Shown here piece after piece: positions 1,340 to 16,500 of a DNA stretch of 64,000 nt. A model generated the notes under the pieces. The model was not told the origin of the DNA, did not search any database, and saw only the letters and a list, made by a program, of their open reading frames with translations. The translations under genes and the position numbers were made by a program. Each line of letters opens with the position of its first letter. Position 1 is the first letter of the stretch. The stretch comes from Methanothrix sp. (GTDB lineage: Archaea > Halobacteriota > Methanosarcinia > Methanotrichales > Methanotrichaceae), in the NCBI GenBank assembly GCA_963682135.1, contig OY821645.1, positions 2,272,001-2,336,000 of the forward strand, given 5' to 3'.

Positions 1340-2158
1340 ATGCAGCAACAAGTCGTGCTTACCATAGGCGGCTCCGACTCGGGCGGTGGGGCCGGCATCC
1401 AGGCGGACCTCAAGACATTCTGTGTGCTAAGGCTGCATGGCACCAGCGCCATCACCGCCATTACCGCCCAAAACACCCTGGGAGTGCAACGGGTGTTCGG
1501 CCTGGAACCAGAGATAGTAGTAGAGCAGCTGCGGTCGATCACCGATGATTTCTCCATCGCCTTTGCCAAGACCGGCATGCTTCACAGCGCCGAGATTGTC
1601 ATAGCTGTGGCCCGGCACCTGAGGATGAGGGATATTCCCTTCGTCCTGGACCCGGTAATTTCCGCGGAAGCGGGCGGAAGGCTGCTTCGTCCTGATGCCG
1701 TAGAGGCGCTAAAAGCGCATCTCATTGCGCGAGCCAATGTCGTAACACCCAATATCTTCGAGGCCCAGGCTCTGACGGGAATTGTTGTTCGCGATAGGGA
1801 GAGTTGCCATCAGGCTGCCCAGAAGATCTTAGAGCTCGGAGCGAAGGCGGTAATCATTAAGGGCGGACACCTGGACTATATCGATCTCCTGATGACCGAC
1901 AAAGAGGTCATCCTTTTGCCGGGTGAGAGGGTGAAGGGCGAAAACCACGGAGTGGGATGCACCTACTCTGCCGCATTAACCGCATTTCTCGCACGGGGTT
2001 GCTCCCTGAAAGAAGCAGCCCGCCAGGCCAAAGGGTTCGCAGAACGGGCGCTTCTGGGCAGCATGCGGGTGGGCAAGGGAGTGGGGCCGGTGAGCCAGGC
2101 GGCGGCTGCGGCAGCAGCGAATGGCAATGGCCATGAGCTTGGCCTTAGCATGCGATAA
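1340..2158 (+). CDS. thiD: hydroxymethylpyrimidine/phosphomethylpyrimidine kinase
   Basis: LTIGGSDSGGGAGIQADLKTF, TPNIFEA, IKGGH, NHGVGCTYSAA motifs. Confidence 0.95.
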   Translation: MQQQVVLTIGGSDSGGGAGIQADLKTFCVLRLHGTSAITAITAQNTLGVQRVFGLEPEIVVEQLRSITDDFSIAFAKTGMLHSAEIVIAVARHLRMRDIPFVLDPVISAEAGGRLLRPDAVEALKAHLIARANVVTPNIFEAQALTGIVVRDRESCHQAAQKILELGAKAVIIKGGHLDYIDLLMTDKEVILLPGERVKGENHGVGCTYSAALTAFLARGCSLKEAARQAKGFAERALLGSMRVGKGVGPVSQAAAAAAANGNGHELGLSMR

Positions 2159-2236
2159 GGACAACCCTGAGGACGGGAAGATATAAATTGGTGAGGCAAG
2201 GATGCACAAAGGATTGCTCTAGCTGGAGTGTTGATT

Positions 2237-2455
2237 ATGGGAAGTGTAAAACCTAGTTATATCAAGAATTTCGCAATGGATCTGTTGAGAACCTACGAAA
2301 GCTCATTTAGCCCCGACTTTGAACAAAACAAACTAAAAGTATCCGAGTATACCGACATCAAAAATAAGACCATACGGAATCGTGTGGCAGGATATATTTC
2401 TAATGTGATGCGGCAGAGACGCACTCGCCGAGGCGAGGTCGAGATTGATGTTTAA
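2237..2455 (+). CDS. rps17e: 30S ribosomal protein S17e
   Basis: MGSVKPSYIK...DFEQNK...IRNRVAGYI. Confidence 0.95.
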   Translation: MGSVKPSYIKNFAMDLLRTYESSFSPDFEQNKLKVSEYTDIKNKTIRNRVAGYISNVMRQRRTRRGEVEIDV

Positions 2456-3323
2456 AGGCGTGTTTCCTGCTATAATCACGCCGTTTTTAGAAGATGAGAG
2501 CTTAGATGAGGAGGGACTGAAGAAGAACATTAAGTACCTGAATAATACAGGTATAGCAGGTATTGTTCCCTGCGGCACAACTGGTGAGTCGGCCACATTA
2601 ACCTTTGAGGAGCATAAAAGGGTAGTGGAGATTGCTGTGGAATCCTCCAAAGTGCCGGTTATAGCTGGTACGGGTTCAAATAATACCCGCGAGGCTCTGG
2701 AGCTGACGCGCCATGCCGCCAAAGCAGGTGCATCTGCTGCTCTATTGATCACCCCTTACTACAATAAACCCAATGACAGGGGCATGTTCGAGCATTTCAA
2801 GACCGTCGCCGATAAGTGCGATATTCCCATTGTGCTCTATAATGTTCCCAAGAGAACCGGAATAGATCTCAAGCCGGAATTGGTCGCGAAGCTATCCAAG
2901 GTAAGGAACATCGTGGCCATAAAGGAGGCCAGCGGAAGCCTTTCTCAACAATCTCAGATTATCGAGCAGACCCGGGGCAGTGATTTTGTCGTTCTTTCGG
3001 GTGATGATGATCTGACTCTTCCTACCATGTCACTGGGCGCTCAGGGCGTCGTCTCAGTTGTGGCCAATGTGGCTCCCAGAAAGACGGTGGCCATGGTGGA
3101 CGCTATTTTGAAGGGCGACATGGAGAAAGCCAGGTCGCTGCACTATGAGCTTGCTCCACTGGTGCGAGCCATGTTCCTGGAGACCAATCCCATTCCGGTT
3201 AAGACGGCTCAAAGGTATCTGGGACTGGCCGGTGGACCGATGCGTCTTCCTCTGGCACCAATGGCTCCGGAGAAAGAGCTTATCTTAAAAGAGATACTCA
3301 ATCGGCTGGGCGAGAGAGCATGA
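2448..3323 (+). CDS. dapA: 4-hydroxy-tetrahydrodipicolinate synthase
   Basis: GTTGES, PYYNKP, LYNVP, IKEASG, ETNPIPVK motifs. Confidence 0.97.
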   Translation: MFKGVFPAIITPFLEDESLDEEGLKKNIKYLNNTGIAGIVPCGTTGESATLTFEEHKRVVEIAVESSKVPVIAGTGSNNTREALELTRHAAKAGASAALLITPYYNKPNDRGMFEHFKTVADKCDIPIVLYNVPKRTGIDLKPELVAKLSKVRNIVAIKEASGSLSQQSQIIEQTRGSDFVVLSGDDDLTLPTMSLGAQGVVSVVANVAPRKTVAMVDAILKGDMEKARSLHYELAPLVRAMFLETNPIPVKTAQRYLGLAGGPMRLPLAPMAPEKELILKEILNRLGERA

Positions 3324-11702: not shown

Positions 11703-12051
11703 GAAGCTGAGAGTATTCTTCATGCACCTGGTGGCTGCTCCGCCCCAGGTGTAACCATTTTTATTAATTTTATGCACTAAATAAATATAAATTTTTAATC
11801 TGCATTAAATCCTATCCGGAAAAAAGATACTGCCGCCGGATGACGAGCCGTCATTGGCTTCCAGGTTTCAATCCTTGTTTTTGTGGAACTCACCCACGGA
11901 GCTCAAGGGGCCGGATTATCCGATCAATATTATCGCGTTTCAATCCTTGTTTTTGTGGAACTCGCCCCCGGAGTTCATGCAGATTCGTGCAGAAGAGGCG
12001 CACCGTCCGGTTTCCCATGGAAAACCACATAAATCATAATCAGGAGGCGAC

Positions 12052-13377
12052 CTATTCACCTCCCCCGGATGGCCTTTTCTGGCCGGGTTTTGTTATAGAA
12101 ATGGCTCCAAGCTCACGCATAAGAGCATTCTTCCTGCTGCCCTCTTTCAGGTGATAAAAGGCGTCCACAATTGCAGCTACTCTATCCGTCAATTGCTCAT
12201 CCTGAAATGAAGGTGCCTGGCAGGACTTATCCTGACTTGCTCCTCTCGATCTGCATTCACCTTCCTGATACAGCTCCTGGTTGATAAGAAGATGATGAAT
12301 GAGACAGATAAGCTTCCTGGCTACAGCAATAGTGGCTACATTTGGCTCCTTCTTTTTGACCAACCTCTGGAAGAACCTGGAAAGCCGTGTATTTTTCATT
12401 CTTCCGATGGTCTTTGCAGCCTGAACCAGCATAACTCTAATGTACTTGGAACCCTTCTTTGTAATTCCGCATTTTTTCTTTTTGCCCGCAGATTCGCTTT
12501 CTCCAGGATTGAGGCCGCACCATTTAGCGAGTTGGTCAGGTGTCTGAAAATCACGGTAATTTCCAATTTCAGACAATATGGCCGATGCGGATACGAATCC
12601 AATTCCTGGAATTGACATGACGATGGCCAGGTCTTTGCTCTTCTGCTGAATCTTTTTCAGGACCTCATGGCTCAGCTTTTCTATTTTGGATTCGAGATTA
12701 TCAATGAATTCCAGGGCATCTATTAAGAGCATTCTGTTTGTATCATCAAGACTTCTTTCAAGTGCTACCCTAATTTCGTCTTGCTTTTTCCTTATTTTTC
12801 CGGATGGGATGCCTTTCAAGATCTTCTCGATGGACTTCTTTTTTGCCAGACCGTCCAAAATATATCTGCCGGATTTGCAGAATATGTCGTCCATGCAAGA
12901 ACTGAGTTTGATCCCGCATGATGAAAGGTATTTGTGTATCCGATTCCGGAACTGAGTTCGTGTCTTGACATATCCGGACCTGGCTCGAGTTAGAGTCCTG
13001 AGATCTCGGTCTTCATTGGTAAATACCCTAGAGCGCTTGATTTGATTGTTCAGGCAAAGAGATGCAATCCGCTTTGAGTCTTTTGAATCAGATTTGTCGT
13101 TGGGAATAGTCTTTATCTGCAACGGATTGGCAACGATTGTATCTATGGTTTTGCTCAATGCATCATAGATCGGTATCCAATAGACTCCAGTAGCCTCAAA
13201 TGCCACCTGTTCGCATTTGTTGGCTACCAGCCATTTGCGAAATTTCCTAAGTTCAGTTTTCGTTGTCCCAAAATCCATTCGAATCGGTTGAAAATCATCG
13301 CCTGTTATTGTTGCCACGATCAAATCTTTATGGACATCTGCACCGCAAACTCTATCTCTTCGTTTTTTCATATACAT
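12052..13377 (-). CDS. IS110-family (DEDD) recombinase/transposase
   Basis: GADVHKD, FEATGVYW, KSDSKDS (DEDD RuvC-like) and SIPGIG...GLNPGESESAGK (Tnp domain). Start likely at MYMKKRR (13377/13371) rather than the ORF-track GTG at 13533. Confidence 0.95.
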   Translation of the reverse strand: MYMKKRRDRVCGADVHKDLIVATITGDDFQPIRMDFGTTKTELRKFRKWLVANKCEQVAFEATGVYWIPIYDALSKTIDTIVANPLQIKTIPNDKSDSKDSKRIASLCLNNQIKRSRVFTNEDRDLRTLTRARSGYVKTRTQFRNRIHKYLSSCGIKLSSCMDDIFCKSGRYILDGLAKKKSIEKILKGIPSGKIRKKQDEIRVALERSLDDTNRMLLIDALEFIDNLESKIEKLSHEVLKKIQQKSKDLAIVMSIPGIGFVSASAILSEIGNYRDFQTPDQLAKWCGLNPGESESAGKKKKCGITKKGSKYIRVMLVQAAKTIGRMKNTRLSRFFQRLVKKKEPNVATIAVARKLICLIHHLLINQELYQEGECRSRGASQDKSCQAPSFQDEQLTDRVAAIVDAFYHLKEGSRKNALMRELGAISITKPGQKRPSGGGE

Positions 13378-13604
13378 TTCTGCCTGGTATGGGCAGATGA
13401 TGTTTCCCTGATATGAGATAATTTCCCATACGCGTTCTATGACGCAGTCCCGTATTCGGGGGATCTTGGCTCGTTTCAATCGCGGGATCAGCCGTCCCAT
13501 AAACTTGTCAGCCTTCACTGCCCATAACCACATTTAACGTGAACGGATTACAATATGTGGTTTTCCATCCGTCACGTGTGAGCCTCTGCCTGGGGCGCAT
13601 GGGC
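13378..13604 (-). ncRNA. putative bridge/seek RNA region of IS110 copy 1
   Basis: ~230-nt non-coding region upstream of the recombinase containing GTTTCAATC (13473-13481, first 9 nt of the repeat on +) and TTTCCCAT (13422-13429, element end junction); boundaries unknown. Confidence 0.6.
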
Positions 13605-14305
13605 GTTTCAATCCTTGTTTTTGTGGAACTCGCCCTCGGAGGATACCGATTTCAGTTATATCAAGTGTTTCACAAAGAAGTTTCAATCCTTGTTTTTGTG
13701 GAACTCGCCCTCGGAGTTTCTGCTATCCTGGCCGTCGCCGGGTAGTTCCTGAGTTTCAATCCTTGTTTTTGTGGAACTCGCCCTCGGAGATGTCTATCCT
13801 CATTCCGGTCCTACGAGCAAAGTCTTGTTTCAATCCTTGTTTTTGTGGAACTCGCCCTCGGAGGCAGAAGATGAAAAGATAGAGTACCGGATGAACGAGT
13901 TTCAATCCTTGTTTTTGTGGAACTCGCCCTCGGAGCAAACTACGGTCGATGCTATCAAGGCCAAGACTGAGTTTCAATCCTTGTTTTTGTGGAACTCGCC
14001 CTCGGAGCCAGGATGAAGCAACTTGACCTTTCCAGCTTCAAAAGGTTTCAATCCTTGTTTTTGTGGAACTCGCCCTCGGAGTCATTTAAGCCACCGCCTC
14101 TGTCCACTCATAGTTCAGTTTCAATCCTTGTTTTTGTGGAACTCGCCCTCGGAGGCCAAGATTACCCTCAAGGATGCAGCAGAGGTGGGTTTCAATCCTT
14201 GTTTTTGTGGAACTCGCCCTCGGAGGGACTGGACAATCAAGGGAAGCGGTGCCGTCACCGCCAGTTTCCCATGGAAAACCACATAAATCATAATCAGGAG
14301 GCGAC

Positions 14306-15631
14306 CTATTCACCTCCCCCGGATGGCCTTTTCTGGCCGGGTTTTGTTATAGAAATGGCTCCAAGCTCACGCATAAGAGCATTCTTCCTGCTGCCCTCTT
14401 TCAGGTGATAAAAGGCGTCCACAATTGCAGCTACTCTATCCGTCAATTGCTCATCCTGAAATGAAGGTGCCTGGCAGGACTTATCCTGACTTGCTCCTCT
14501 CGATCTGCATTCACCTTCCTGATACAGCTCCTGGTTGATAAGAAGATGATGAATGAGACAGATAAGCTTCCTGGCTACAGCAATAGTGGCTACATTTGGC
14601 TCCTTCTTTTTGACCAACCTCTGGAAGAACCTGGAAAGCCGTGTATTTTTCATTCTTCCGATGGTCTTTGCAGCCTGAACCAGCATAACTCTAATGTACT
14701 TGGAACCCTTCTTTGTAATTCCGCATTTTTTCTTTTTGCCCGCAGATTCGCTTTCTCCAGGATTGAGGCCGCACCATTTAGCGAGTTGGTCAGGTGTCTG
14801 AAAATCACGGTAATTTCCAATTTCAGACAATATGGCCGATGCGGATACGAATCCAATTCCTGGAATTGACATGACGATGGCCAGGTCTTTGCTCTTCTGC
14901 TGAATCTTTTTCAGGACCTCATGGCTCAGCTTTTCTATTTTGGATTCGAGATTATCAATGAATTCCAGGGCATCTATTAAGAGCATTCTGTTTGTATCAT
15001 CAAGACTTCTTTCAAGTGCTACCCTAATTTCGTCTTGCTTTTTCCTTATTTTTCCGGATGGGATGCCTTTCAAGATCTTCTCGATGGACTTCTTTTTTGC
15101 CAGACCGTCCAAAATATATCTGCCGGATTTGCAGAATATGTCGTCCATGCAAGAACTGAGTTTGATCCCGCATGATGAAAGGTATTTGTGTATCCGATTC
15201 CGGAACTGAGTTCGTGTCTTGACATATCCGGACCTGGCTCGAGTTAGAGTCCTGAGATCTCGGTCTTCATTGGTAAATACCCTAGAGCGCTTGATTTGAT
15301 TGTTCAGGCAAAGAGATGCAATCCGCTTTGAGTCTTTTGAATCAGATTTGTCGTTGGGAATAGTCTTTATCTGCAACGGATTGGCAACGATTGTATCTAT
15401 GGTTTTGCTCAATGCATCATAGATCGGTATCCAATAGACTCCAGTAGCCTCAAATGCCACCTGTTCGCATTTGTTGGCTACCAGCCATTTGCGAAATTTC
15501 CTAAGTTCAGTTTTCGTTGTCCCAAAATCCATTCGAATCGGTTGAAAATCATCGCCTGTTATTGTTGCCACGATCAAATCTTTATGGACATCTGCACCGC
15601 AAACTCTATCTCTTCGTTTTTTCATATACAT
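14306..15631 (-). CDS. IS110-family (DEDD) recombinase/transposase
   Basis: Translation identical to copy 1. Confidence 0.95.
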   Translation of the reverse strand: MYMKKRRDRVCGADVHKDLIVATITGDDFQPIRMDFGTTKTELRKFRKWLVANKCEQVAFEATGVYWIPIYDALSKTIDTIVANPLQIKTIPNDKSDSKDSKRIASLCLNNQIKRSRVFTNEDRDLRTLTRARSGYVKTRTQFRNRIHKYLSSCGIKLSSCMDDIFCKSGRYILDGLAKKKSIEKILKGIPSGKIRKKQDEIRVALERSLDDTNRMLLIDALEFIDNLESKIEKLSHEVLKKIQQKSKDLAIVMSIPGIGFVSASAILSEIGNYRDFQTPDQLAKWCGLNPGESESAGKKKKCGITKKGSKYIRVMLVQAAKTIGRMKNTRLSRFFQRLVKKKEPNVATIAVARKLICLIHHLLINQELYQEGECRSRGASQDKSCQAPSFQDEQLTDRVAAIVDAFYHLKEGSRKNALMRELGAISITKPGQKRPSGGGE

Positions 15632-15858
15632 TTCTGCCTGGTATGGGCAGATGATGTTTCCCTGATATGAGATAATTTCCCATACGCGTTCTATGACGCA
15701 GTCCCGTATTCGGGGGATCTTGGCTCGTTTCAATCGCGGGATCAGCCGTCCCATAAACTTGTCAGCCTTCACTGCCCATAACCACATTTAACGTGAACGG
15801 ATTACAATATGTGGTTTTCCATCCGTCACGTGTGAGCCTCTGCCTGGGGCGCATGGGC
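15632..15858 (-). ncRNA. putative bridge/seek RNA region of IS110 copy 2
   Basis: Same as copy 1; GTTTCAATC at 15727-15735. Confidence 0.6.
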
Positions 15859-16189
15859 GTTTCAATCCTTGTTTTTGTGGAACTCGCCCTCGGAGATTGA
15901 ACGATAATGTCACGGATGACAGTGGAAATGGTAAGTTTCAATCCTTGTTTTTGTGGAACTCGCCCTCGGAGTTCGGGGCGATATACTGGAGCTTTCCGGG
16001 TCGGAGGGTTTCAATCCTTGTTTTTGTGGAACTCGCCCTCGGAGCCTGGAACGGTCCGGCCAGTGCGGTGTCTGAGCTGTGTTTCAATCCTTGTTTTTGT
16101 GGAACTCGCCCTCGGAGAGGGAACATTTCGTTGAAGCCGACAAATTGATTGAGTTTCAATCCTTGTTTTTGTGGAACTCGCCCTCGGAG

Positions 16190-16500
16190 AGCGGCTTTTT
16201 TTCGTCCTTTTCCCTGTTTCTCATCGTCAAACCGGCCTTTTCTCACCCTCCTTAAATCATGAGTAGAATTTATTAGAGGGCTTATAAATTCATTCCGGCA
16301 GGTGGGCCAAAAAATAGGCTTCCTGCCAAAAAACAGATAATGCATACCTATTTCTGTTTTGCATATGCACCGTGACTTTTGTAAACCTATTTCTCATCTG
16401 CAAATATCCTCTTGGTAGAAAAAGGTTTTTATGGAAAGGCTTCCATAAAACATACTCAATGTGCGAGAGTTCGAATCCAGTGAATTACTCCATGCGCAAG
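16190..16500 (-). promoter_or_regulatory. CRISPR leader
   Basis: Non-coding, relatively AT-rich stretch between cas6 and the non-degenerate end of the array; TTTATAA TATA-like on - strand near 16282-16288. Confidence 0.7.

Follow-up and report, generated by a model that had tools for sequence, protein, structure and literature searches.

Why do two identical insertion sequences lie at the same position of different repeats in one CRISPR array, and what directs them there? The question is raised by a stretch of 64,000 nucleotides (nt) from Methanothrix sp. (contig OY821645.1, positions 2,272,001 to 2,336,000; the whole of this stretch is called the window), in which two copies of an IS110-family element interrupt a CRISPR array. 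We consider it very probable that positions 13378-13604 of the window, directly upstream of the recombinase gene of the first copy, are the non-coding left end of an IS110-family RNA-guided insertion sequence and encode its bridge/seek RNA. An RNA-guided mechanism accounts for identical insertions at the same position of different CRISPR repeats in Methanothrix. An original prediction, made from the letters of the window, had placed the left guides for target and donor at 13473-13481 and 13422-13429, respectively, in an IS621-like order, and had cautioned that matches of 8-9 nt may be due to chance.

The CRISPR array and sequence matches in the left end

The genome consists of one contig of 3.04 Mb and carries three 100% identical copies of the element, two of which are inside the CRISPR array of the window. 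The array (11865-16189) has 16 repeats and is interrupted twice by insertions of 1,595 bp. Each array insertion directly follows a complete repeat and lies on the (-) strand, co-oriented with the Rfam reading of the repeats, which end ..AAGGAUUGAAAC on that strand (Rfam 15 search of 11800-16300 with E up to 1; 16 CRISPR-DR7 matches of 30.4-34.5 bits, all below the gathering score of 37). Non-coding sequence amounts to 227 nt upstream of the recombinase gene and ~41 nt (12051-12011) after its stop codon.

In the (-) sense, the letters of 13481-13473 are GATTGAAAC, the same as the final 9 nt of the CRISPR repeat, and 13429-13422 is ATGGGAAA, identical to 8 nt of the right end of the element, ..CCATGGGAAAC (12020-12010). 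Both matches terminate in GAAA, which adjoins both element ends (13609-13606 and 12014-12011), and a small hairpin, CCCG-AAUA-CGGG, lies between them at 13460-13449. The original prediction was thus accurate on both identities, on the hairpin and on the run of both segments into a GAAA(C) crossover sequence. Its caution about chance applies to the matches singly and carries little weight for the pair. Among 20,000 first-order Markov versions of the 227-nt region, scored for core-anchored matches, 57 contain a repeat-end match of at least 9 nt and 363 an element-end match of at least 8 nt, and only one contains both, so that a chance origin of both matches is unlikely.

The third identical copy (L003) lies outside any array, and its flanks read ..GGATATGAAA/C..element..GGGAAA/TCTAATT (here and below, a slash marks the junction). 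Crossover presumably occurs within GAAA, because this is all that the target of L003 and the element ends have in common. In other subfamilies the core of target and donor is only AA or AAG. A short core is common to donor junction and target, with no target-site duplication beyond it.

The recombinase gene and its non-coding upstream region

The recombinase has the Pfam domains DEDD_Tnp_IS110 and Transposase_20 (PF02371), with E = 3.1e-21 and 3.5e-24, and passes the NCBIfam model NF033542 'IS110 family RNA-guided transposase' with 254 bits against a cut-off of 140. It aligns distantly with the solved IS621 and ISCro4 transposases in PDB (IS621, E = 4.6e-6), and three start variants of the protein have no exact match in the collection searched. 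The start adopted here was chosen by the first Pfam profile position together with a coding test.

An alternative start, the ATG at 13533, opens a frame of 493 aa that would include much of the left end in the protein. The Pfam profile starts only at residue 63 of this long open reading frame (ORF), and in 24 of 29 relatives the upstream frame is stopped within 54 codons; one of the frame-closing stops is inside the guide itself, which reads CGTGATTG instead of CGCGATTG. Substitutions among close relatives are spread evenly over codon positions upstream (e.g., 6/6/4) and are concentrated at third positions in the gene (22/8/62), and the upstream region of relatives has indels of 1 and 2 nt. 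The region 13378-13604 is non-coding and is not the recombinase N terminus; with the frame closed in most relatives and no third-position bias, the possibility of translation, which the original prediction had named among the results that would refute it, falls away.

Target guides and insertion sites

Relatives of the element were sought in 105 Methanotrichaceae genomes, and 56 of these gave matches (E of 1e-30 or less; identities between ~31% and 84%). A scan with one genome per species gave 17 loci; 60 regions were fetched and 69 copies were oriented. Loci were left out as duplicates of others (L001, L002, L005, L007, L008), as truncated or without a left end (L015, L019, L021, L022) and as a separate group at ~34% identity (L077-L082). 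Five of the 69 oriented copies were dropped for missing anchors: L018, L044 and L051, in which the RNA region is deleted or degenerate, the nested L041, and L076. The right junction of L042 was mis-parsed by the pattern, and this copy was kept in the counts as a low value. One RNA architecture is common to ~70 related Methanotrichaceae copies. In the guide test, four intervals per RNA were cut by conserved anchors and compared with the copy's own junctions and with junctions of unrelated guide types.

Among relatives with recombinases that are 42-85% identical, the counterpart of GAUUGAAAC varies together with the left flank of the insertion, and this co-variation of guide and flank bears out the assignment of 13473-13481 as the left target guide. 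The longest exact match has a mean of 8.08 nt over 50 unique cognate pairs (at least 8 nt in 40, at least 6 nt in 47) and of 4.27 nt over 2,038 non-cognate pairs, one of which reaches 8 nt. Counted by left-guide type, the own-site median is at least 6 nt in all 21 types and at least 8 nt in 16, and one of 358 non-cognate combinations reaches 8 nt. Guides and sites that differ widely illustrate this agreement, such as CUGCGGAAAC with cctgcggaaac, UUUAUAAAAC with tttataaaac and GUCAUAGAAAG with gtcatagaaag. Two close relatives have a one-base guide difference (CGCAAAGA versus CACAAAGA), and the same base differs in their targets. In two copies from another family of the phylum, left-guide matches read by eye extend over 9 and 11 nt.

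At 22 unique sites of close relatives, the bases A-T-T-G-A-A-A are each matched in 20-22 cases and the next C in 17 of 20. Only nine of the 22 sites have a match to the G that opens the 9-mer (13481), and the effective left target guide is therefore AUUGAAAC. Twelve of the sites are in repeat arrays of at least three repeat families, all of which end in ATTGAAAC. We take this target to be the conserved 3' end of Cas6-type repeats, presumably kept across repeat families because its 8 nt become the 5' handle of the CRISPR RNA (crRNA). The left target guide continues for one or two bases past the target match, and these bases are those of the left-end start (C, CG, AC, A or G); in the window copy, G13472, which follows the guide, matches the second base of the left end. 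By analogy, this extension may correspond to the handshake guide of IS621, which it resembles.

A right target guide was looked for by eye at its IS621 position, 3' of the left guide (13472-13431), and no complement of GAAAC plus flank was found there; the upstream segment was therefore examined. The candidate found in it, ACAAGUUU, belongs to a segment that matches the reverse complement of its own right junction over at least 6 nt in 22 of 58 cognate pairs, compared with 52 of 2,792 non-cognate pairs. The best match is at least 7 nt in 12 of 25 types. Right target guides that agree with their junctions include CCGCCGUUU with AAACGGCGG, CGCAAUUU with AAATTGCG, UGAUAUUUU with AAAATATCA and CCCACAUU with AATGTGGG. 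The ideal right flank for the guide type of the window is AAACTTGT, which L012 and L023 match over 8 and 7 nt. Of the IS621-like order first proposed, the position of the target module before the donor module stands, and the order within the target loop does not: the right target guide is 5' of the left one in the window and in all relatives.

Insertion into a bridge-RNA gene has also occurred. On contig C12 of genome G076, one of two copies (L039/L041) is inserted in the bridge-RNA gene of the other, exactly after GATTGAAA, which encodes the left target guide, as would be expected if guide-coding DNA mimics the target.

Two further copies have internal deletions with joints at such segments. 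In L018 (about 1370-1500) the deletion joins GATTGAAAC directly to the sequence after a GGGAAAC segment, and in L044 it joins the flank GTGAAAC to GAAC/GCG inside the RNA gene. Both look like the result of recombination between target-like and donor-like short repeats.

A conserved RNA fold

The 148-nt core of the non-coding region has a minimum free energy of -49.6 kcal/mol (z = -2.63; two of 200 shuffles fold equally well), and its fold is the same as the consensus of the relatives. This scaffold is common to relatives from 42% recombinase identity upward (28 representatives, 41 invariant columns). Four helices are supported by RNAalifold and by pair counting, namely a basal stem, the stem that closes the target loop, a hairpin inside this loop and an invariant hairpin before the donor module. 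Over 23 base pairs in the 28 sequences, 98.3% of cells are paired, compared with 26-53% in slid controls, and compensatory changes are present in five pairs (reached by two of 500 shuffles) and 13 cells (reached by none of 500). The motif of the invariant hairpin occurs in six of 401 genomes sampled across the phylum, including two other families, and a reversed control gave none.

The structured region is probably transcribed. RNA-library contigs of relatives that are 88-99% alike, from four runs in four studies of peat, wetland and biofilm, cover the non-coding region, one of them spanning 13404-13594, and provide a weak hint of transcription; the 18 RNA runs together account for only 0.10 of the sampled words. 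Two of the four runs, X8 and X9, cover the non-coding region with little or no cover of the recombinase gene, in contigs whose depths and gaps in cover cannot rank expression.

Short contig pieces that cover 13466-13518 and 13396-13464 in one RNA library from wetland (X8) run out into sequencing adapter. The ends at 13518 and 13396 may be small-RNA fragment ends of a relative, which contigs cannot prove.

Donor guides and a proposed mechanism

For 22 of 29 pairs of left donor guide and own right end, the longest match is 7 nt or more, and guide and end co-vary in six variants (AUG-GG/AG/CG/UG/GC/GU-AA), which supports the role first assigned to 13422-13429. A right donor guide can be seen in some relatives. 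The segment that follows the third hairpin in L047 and L053 reads, over 9-10 nt, as an exact reverse complement of the core and left-end start; in L054, L049, E2 (a further relative in the window's genome) and L032 the right donor segment fits the left-end start only with bulges. The U-run of this segment is absent from the window element and from all close relatives.

Two other candidates for the right donor guide were considered. The 5' strand of the basal stem, UAUGGGCAG, complements GCCCAT of the left end but is unchanged when the left end of relatives changes; its co-variation is with the stem's 3' strand, and it was rejected. The second, GAUCAU, which precedes the basal stem, was not adopted: it is complementary to ATGATC, present at +8 in some left ends, and is on the wrong side of the U-run for a colinear duplex.

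In the mechanism that we propose, the basal stem carries two modules, target then donor. The target module is an internal loop closed by GGC/GCC, with a 5' strand, ACAAGUUU, that would pair with the top strand AAAC-TTGT; the donor module follows the invariant hairpin and begins with the left donor guide AUGGGAAA. The DEDD/Ser recombinase would bind this RNA, and together they would align the joined ends of an excised circle (..CCATGGG-AAA-CGCCCATG..) with ATTGAAAC sites. The expected junction of such a circle is ..CCATGGGAAA/CGCCCATG.., and strand exchange may take place inside the shared AA(A). Guide-directed exchange at this point would thereby place the element exactly after the last base or bases of the CRISPR repeat and co-orient it with the array.

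A pair of copies in another genome is arranged as a circle junction would be. At L075 (G094, contig C139) two copies lie head to tail, right end then left end, and read CATGGTAAA/CGCCGCATG, which hints at the sequence expected of a circle junction.

Conflicting evidence and alternative explanations

Several observations weigh against the bridge-RNA reading. A right donor guide is not recognisable in the window element or in any close relative, and the homologous segment, CAGGGAAAC, is identical to the right end and core instead of being complementary to the left-end start. At the two window insertions no more than 4 and 5 nt agree with the right target guide, as a result of the spacer that follows the repeat as right flank; recognition in the array would rest mostly on the 8-nt left guide. 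The median match is only 6-7 nt in five of the 21 left-guide types, and the L003 site is imperfect, with a left-guide match of TGAAAC, or of 7 nt (TGAAACG) if the first base of the element is included. No Rfam 15 family matched the bridge RNA in 11800-16300, where only the sub-gathering CRISPR-DR7 matches were returned. The RNA-library contigs are from environmental relatives, may contain DNA and are no proof of transcription. Lastly, the relatives are kin, and the counts therefore overstate independence.

A first alternative is that the recombinase protein reads target DNA directly and that the 8-9-mers have no guide role, being footprints of past recombination such as a captured flank. The internal deletions and the nested insertion demonstrate that guide segments do recombine as DNA, and the conserved subterminal inverted repeats could be protein sites. 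Footprints, however, would not stay at one position of a conserved RNA fold, nor would a pair of them occupy both strands of one loop in opposite senses, nor would they follow different targets through 21 guide types as recombinase identity falls to 42%. RNA guidance has moreover been demonstrated for the family, according to the sections consulted of Durrant 2024 (PMC11208160), Hiraizumi 2024 (PMC11208158) and Siddiquee 2024 (PMC11187229). We regard the footprint explanation as highly improbable.

The region could also be transcribed and have no function beyond recombinase expression, as its 5' leader or as a regulatory RNA. The start codon follows it immediately, the basal stem's 3' strand ending ~12 nt before the ATG, and small RNAs were once proposed to have a regulatory role for ISPpu9, an earlier proposal that is mentioned in the part of Durrant 2024 (PMC11208160) used here. 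Nothing, however, would make a leader co-vary with the flanks of insertions or with the right end of the same element, and this alternative likewise deserves very little weight. The weakest explanation, that the matches are accidental or that the region is the translated N terminus of a 493-aa recombinase, can point to an ATG-initiated frame that is open from 13533 and to single matches that recur in simulated regions, but it has almost no credibility against a joint match found in one simulation, a frame closed in most relatives, a Pfam domain that begins well inside the long ORF and segments that co-vary with flanks across 21 guide types.

Comparison with known systems

A guide-encoding left end of an IS110-family element can be compared with three described types of bridge or seekRNA, for each of which we draw on parts of the published accounts. 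In IS621, a stem is followed by the left target guide (nt 50-58), a stem-loop, the right target guide (nt 77-80), and then the left and right donor guides (PMC11208158); pairing is with the bottom strand for left guides and with the top strand for right ones (PMC11208160). The Methanothrix element is like IS621 in its DEDD plus Tnp-domain recombinase, its guide RNA in a long left end upstream of the gene and its short right end. The target module comes before the donor module, left guides have the top-strand sequence and continue into the core, the right target guide complements the top strand and shares bases with the core, and handshake-like extra bases are present. Unlike IS621, the target loop is mirrored, with the right guide 5' and the left guide 3', the subterminal inverted repeats are 15 bp instead of 2-3 bp, and the core is in an A-run, not CT. 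The host is archaeal, the recombinase has 439 aa versus 326-341 aa for the solved ones, to which it is only distantly alike (E = 4.6e-6), and the window copy has no recognisable right donor guide.

The seekRNAs of the IS1111 family have the top-strand match first, 5' of the bottom-strand one, and ISEc21, of the IS110 family, has them the other way round (PMC11187229). The Methanothrix RNA has the order of the IS1111 seekRNAs of ISEc11, ISKpn4 and ISPa11 (PMC11187229), with the top-strand-complementary segment 5' of the bottom-strand one, if the 'top strand' of that paper is assumed to be the recombinase-gene sense. The 15-bp subterminal inverted repeat falls in the IS1111 range of 7-17 bp, and target matches overlap at the insertion point as they do in IS1111. 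The non-coding RNA region, in contrast, is upstream and not downstream of the gene, and the recombinase is 439 aa versus 330-350 aa (PMC11187229); a few IS1111 members with an upstream non-coding region are reported, e.g., ISMtsp17 (PMC11187229). ISEc21 also encodes its guide RNA in an upstream non-coding region (PMC11187229), but its top-strand match is 3' of the bottom-strand match, the opposite of the order in the Methanothrix element. Natural retargeting by few guide changes has been described for ISMch6, a relative of ISEc21 (PMC11187229).

The element therefore combines IS110-type traits (upstream RNA, 439-aa recombinase) with IS1111-type traits (guide order, 15-bp subterminal repeat), and because of this mixture we assign it to the IS110 family (sensu lato) as a bridge/seek-RNA element whose architecture is hybrid and which belongs to neither described group. 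More tentatively, and with considerable doubt, these elements could form a distinct archaeal bridge-RNA lineage that has a mirror-image target loop, IS1111-type order and long subterminal repeats together with IS110-type upstream RNA and a long recombinase. One clade of it would have its guide fixed on ATTGAAAC, the near-universal 8-nt crRNA handle, with specialised array homing and with the right donor guide replaced by a second right-end copy. If so, CRISPR arrays would be used as multi-copy safe harbours, or would be blunted, and the second right-end copy would imply a different reading of the donor.

The mechanism itself is known (published 2024), and it is the layout and target that are unusual. 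No paper in the literature searched describes an IS110-family element that homes into CRISPR repeats under RNA guidance; the supplementary tables of Durrant 2024 and Siddiquee 2024 may include relatives. A Thermus survey (PMC6352166), in the portion consulted, explains a shared 32 bp by CRISPR repeats that look like part of IS1000 and does not invoke RNA-guided homing. Array-embedded insertion sequences elsewhere can be reinterpreted in the light of the Methanothrix case. Large-scale mining of bridge-RNA variants is under way, as far as can be taken from part of a preprint (bioRxiv 10.64898/2026.10.21.760802).

One archaeal family provides a natural reprogramming series of at least 21 left-target guide types on one RNA scaffold, a useful resource for working out guide rules where IS110-type and IS1111-type features occur together. 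Bridge recombinases are under development for genome writing, and a scaffold of archaeal origin that is wired differently and has guides of 8-11 nt on both strands could prove of interest in practice.

Feature coordinates and further observations

Feature coordinates in the window, with predicted roles for the RNA segments, are collected in Table 1. The subterminal inverted repeat is conserved beyond the window: 8-15 bp are found at the same places, with co-varying sequence, in 18 of 18 representatives.

Table 1. Positions in the window of the IS110-family element, its recombinase gene and the predicted segments of its bridge/seek RNA.
Feature	Position	Strand	Remarks
Element copy 1	12011-13605	(-)	1,595 bp; ends ambiguous within shared GAAA(C)
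Element copy 2	14265-15859	(-)	Identical to copy 1; same segments at +2254
CRISPR repeat, left flank (target) of copy 1	13605-13641	(-)	Last 8 nt ATTGAAAC
Recombinase gene	12052-13371	(-)	439 aa, starts MKKRRDRVCGADVHKD
Subterminal inverted repeat, left arm	13554-13568		Begins 38 nt inside left end; 15 nt, 100% complementary to 12017-12031
Subterminal inverted repeat, right arm	12017-12031		Ends 6 nt before right end
Structured core of bridge/seek RNA	13384-13531	(-)	~148 nt
Basal stem, 5' strand	13516-13526	(-)	Helix 1; pairs with 13388-13399; 11 pairs, 98.0% of cells paired, 2 compensatory pairs
Target-loop closing stem, 5' strand, GGC	13511-13513	(-)	Helix 2; pairs with 13468-13470; 98.8% of cells paired, 1 compensatory pair
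Right target guide ACAAGUUU	13501-13508	(-)	5' strand of target internal loop; complementary to top strand AAAC(TTGT), core + right flank
Target-loop inner hairpin GGGA..UCCC	13484-13498	(-)	Helix 3; 2 compensatory pairs: GC to AU in 5 sequences, AU to GC in 2
Left target guide (G)AUUGAAAC	13473-13481	(-)	3' strand of target internal loop; identical to target top strand, pairs with bottom strand
Target-loop closing stem, 3' strand, GCC	13468-13470	(-)	Helix 2
Hairpin CCCG-AAUA-CGGG	13449-13460	(-)	Kept only in closer relatives
Invariant hairpin UGCGU-N-ACGCG	13431-13446	(-)	Helix 4; immediately before left donor guide; 28/28 sequences
Left donor guide AUGGGAAA	13422-13429	(-)	Identical to right end + core; follows invariant hairpin
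Segment CAGGGAAAC, homologous to relatives' right donor guide	13402-13410	(-)	Here only GGG:CCC could pair
Basal stem, 3' strand	13388-13399	(-)	Helix 1; ends ~12 nt before ATG
Copy 2, left target guide	15727-15735
Copy 2, left donor guide	15676-15683
Copy 2, right target guide	15755-15762

Relatives with other guides have other kinds of target. E2, which is 66% identical to the window element and in the same genome (G000:C1:3001936-3003390; L004, about 1504-3035), has target guides CCCUAAAC and CCCUUU and the site ..CTCTAAA/GGGATGG.., and relatives in other genomes are at ..CCCTAAA/GGATGGGG.., apparently a repeated sequence. Copies L043, L045, L046 and L048, with guides UAGUGAAAC and CCGCCGUUU, have a GC-rich palindromic repeat as target, ..AGTGAAAC/GGCGGCG..CACCCGC..GCAAGC... 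Bacterial IS110 elements are known to target repetitive extragenic palindromic (REP) sequences, and the sites of these four copies resemble REP targeting.

The two low-coordinate repeats of the array (11865-11973) are degenerate, ending ..CACCCACGGAG and ..GCCCCCGGAG versus ..GCCCTCGGAG, which fits the leader-distal end of an array. The first 36 nt of the left end (13569-13604), before the subterminal repeat, form an imperfect hairpin that reads CATGAGCC..GGCTCATG in relatives and may represent either the 5' stem-loop of an extended form of the RNA or a donor DNA feature.

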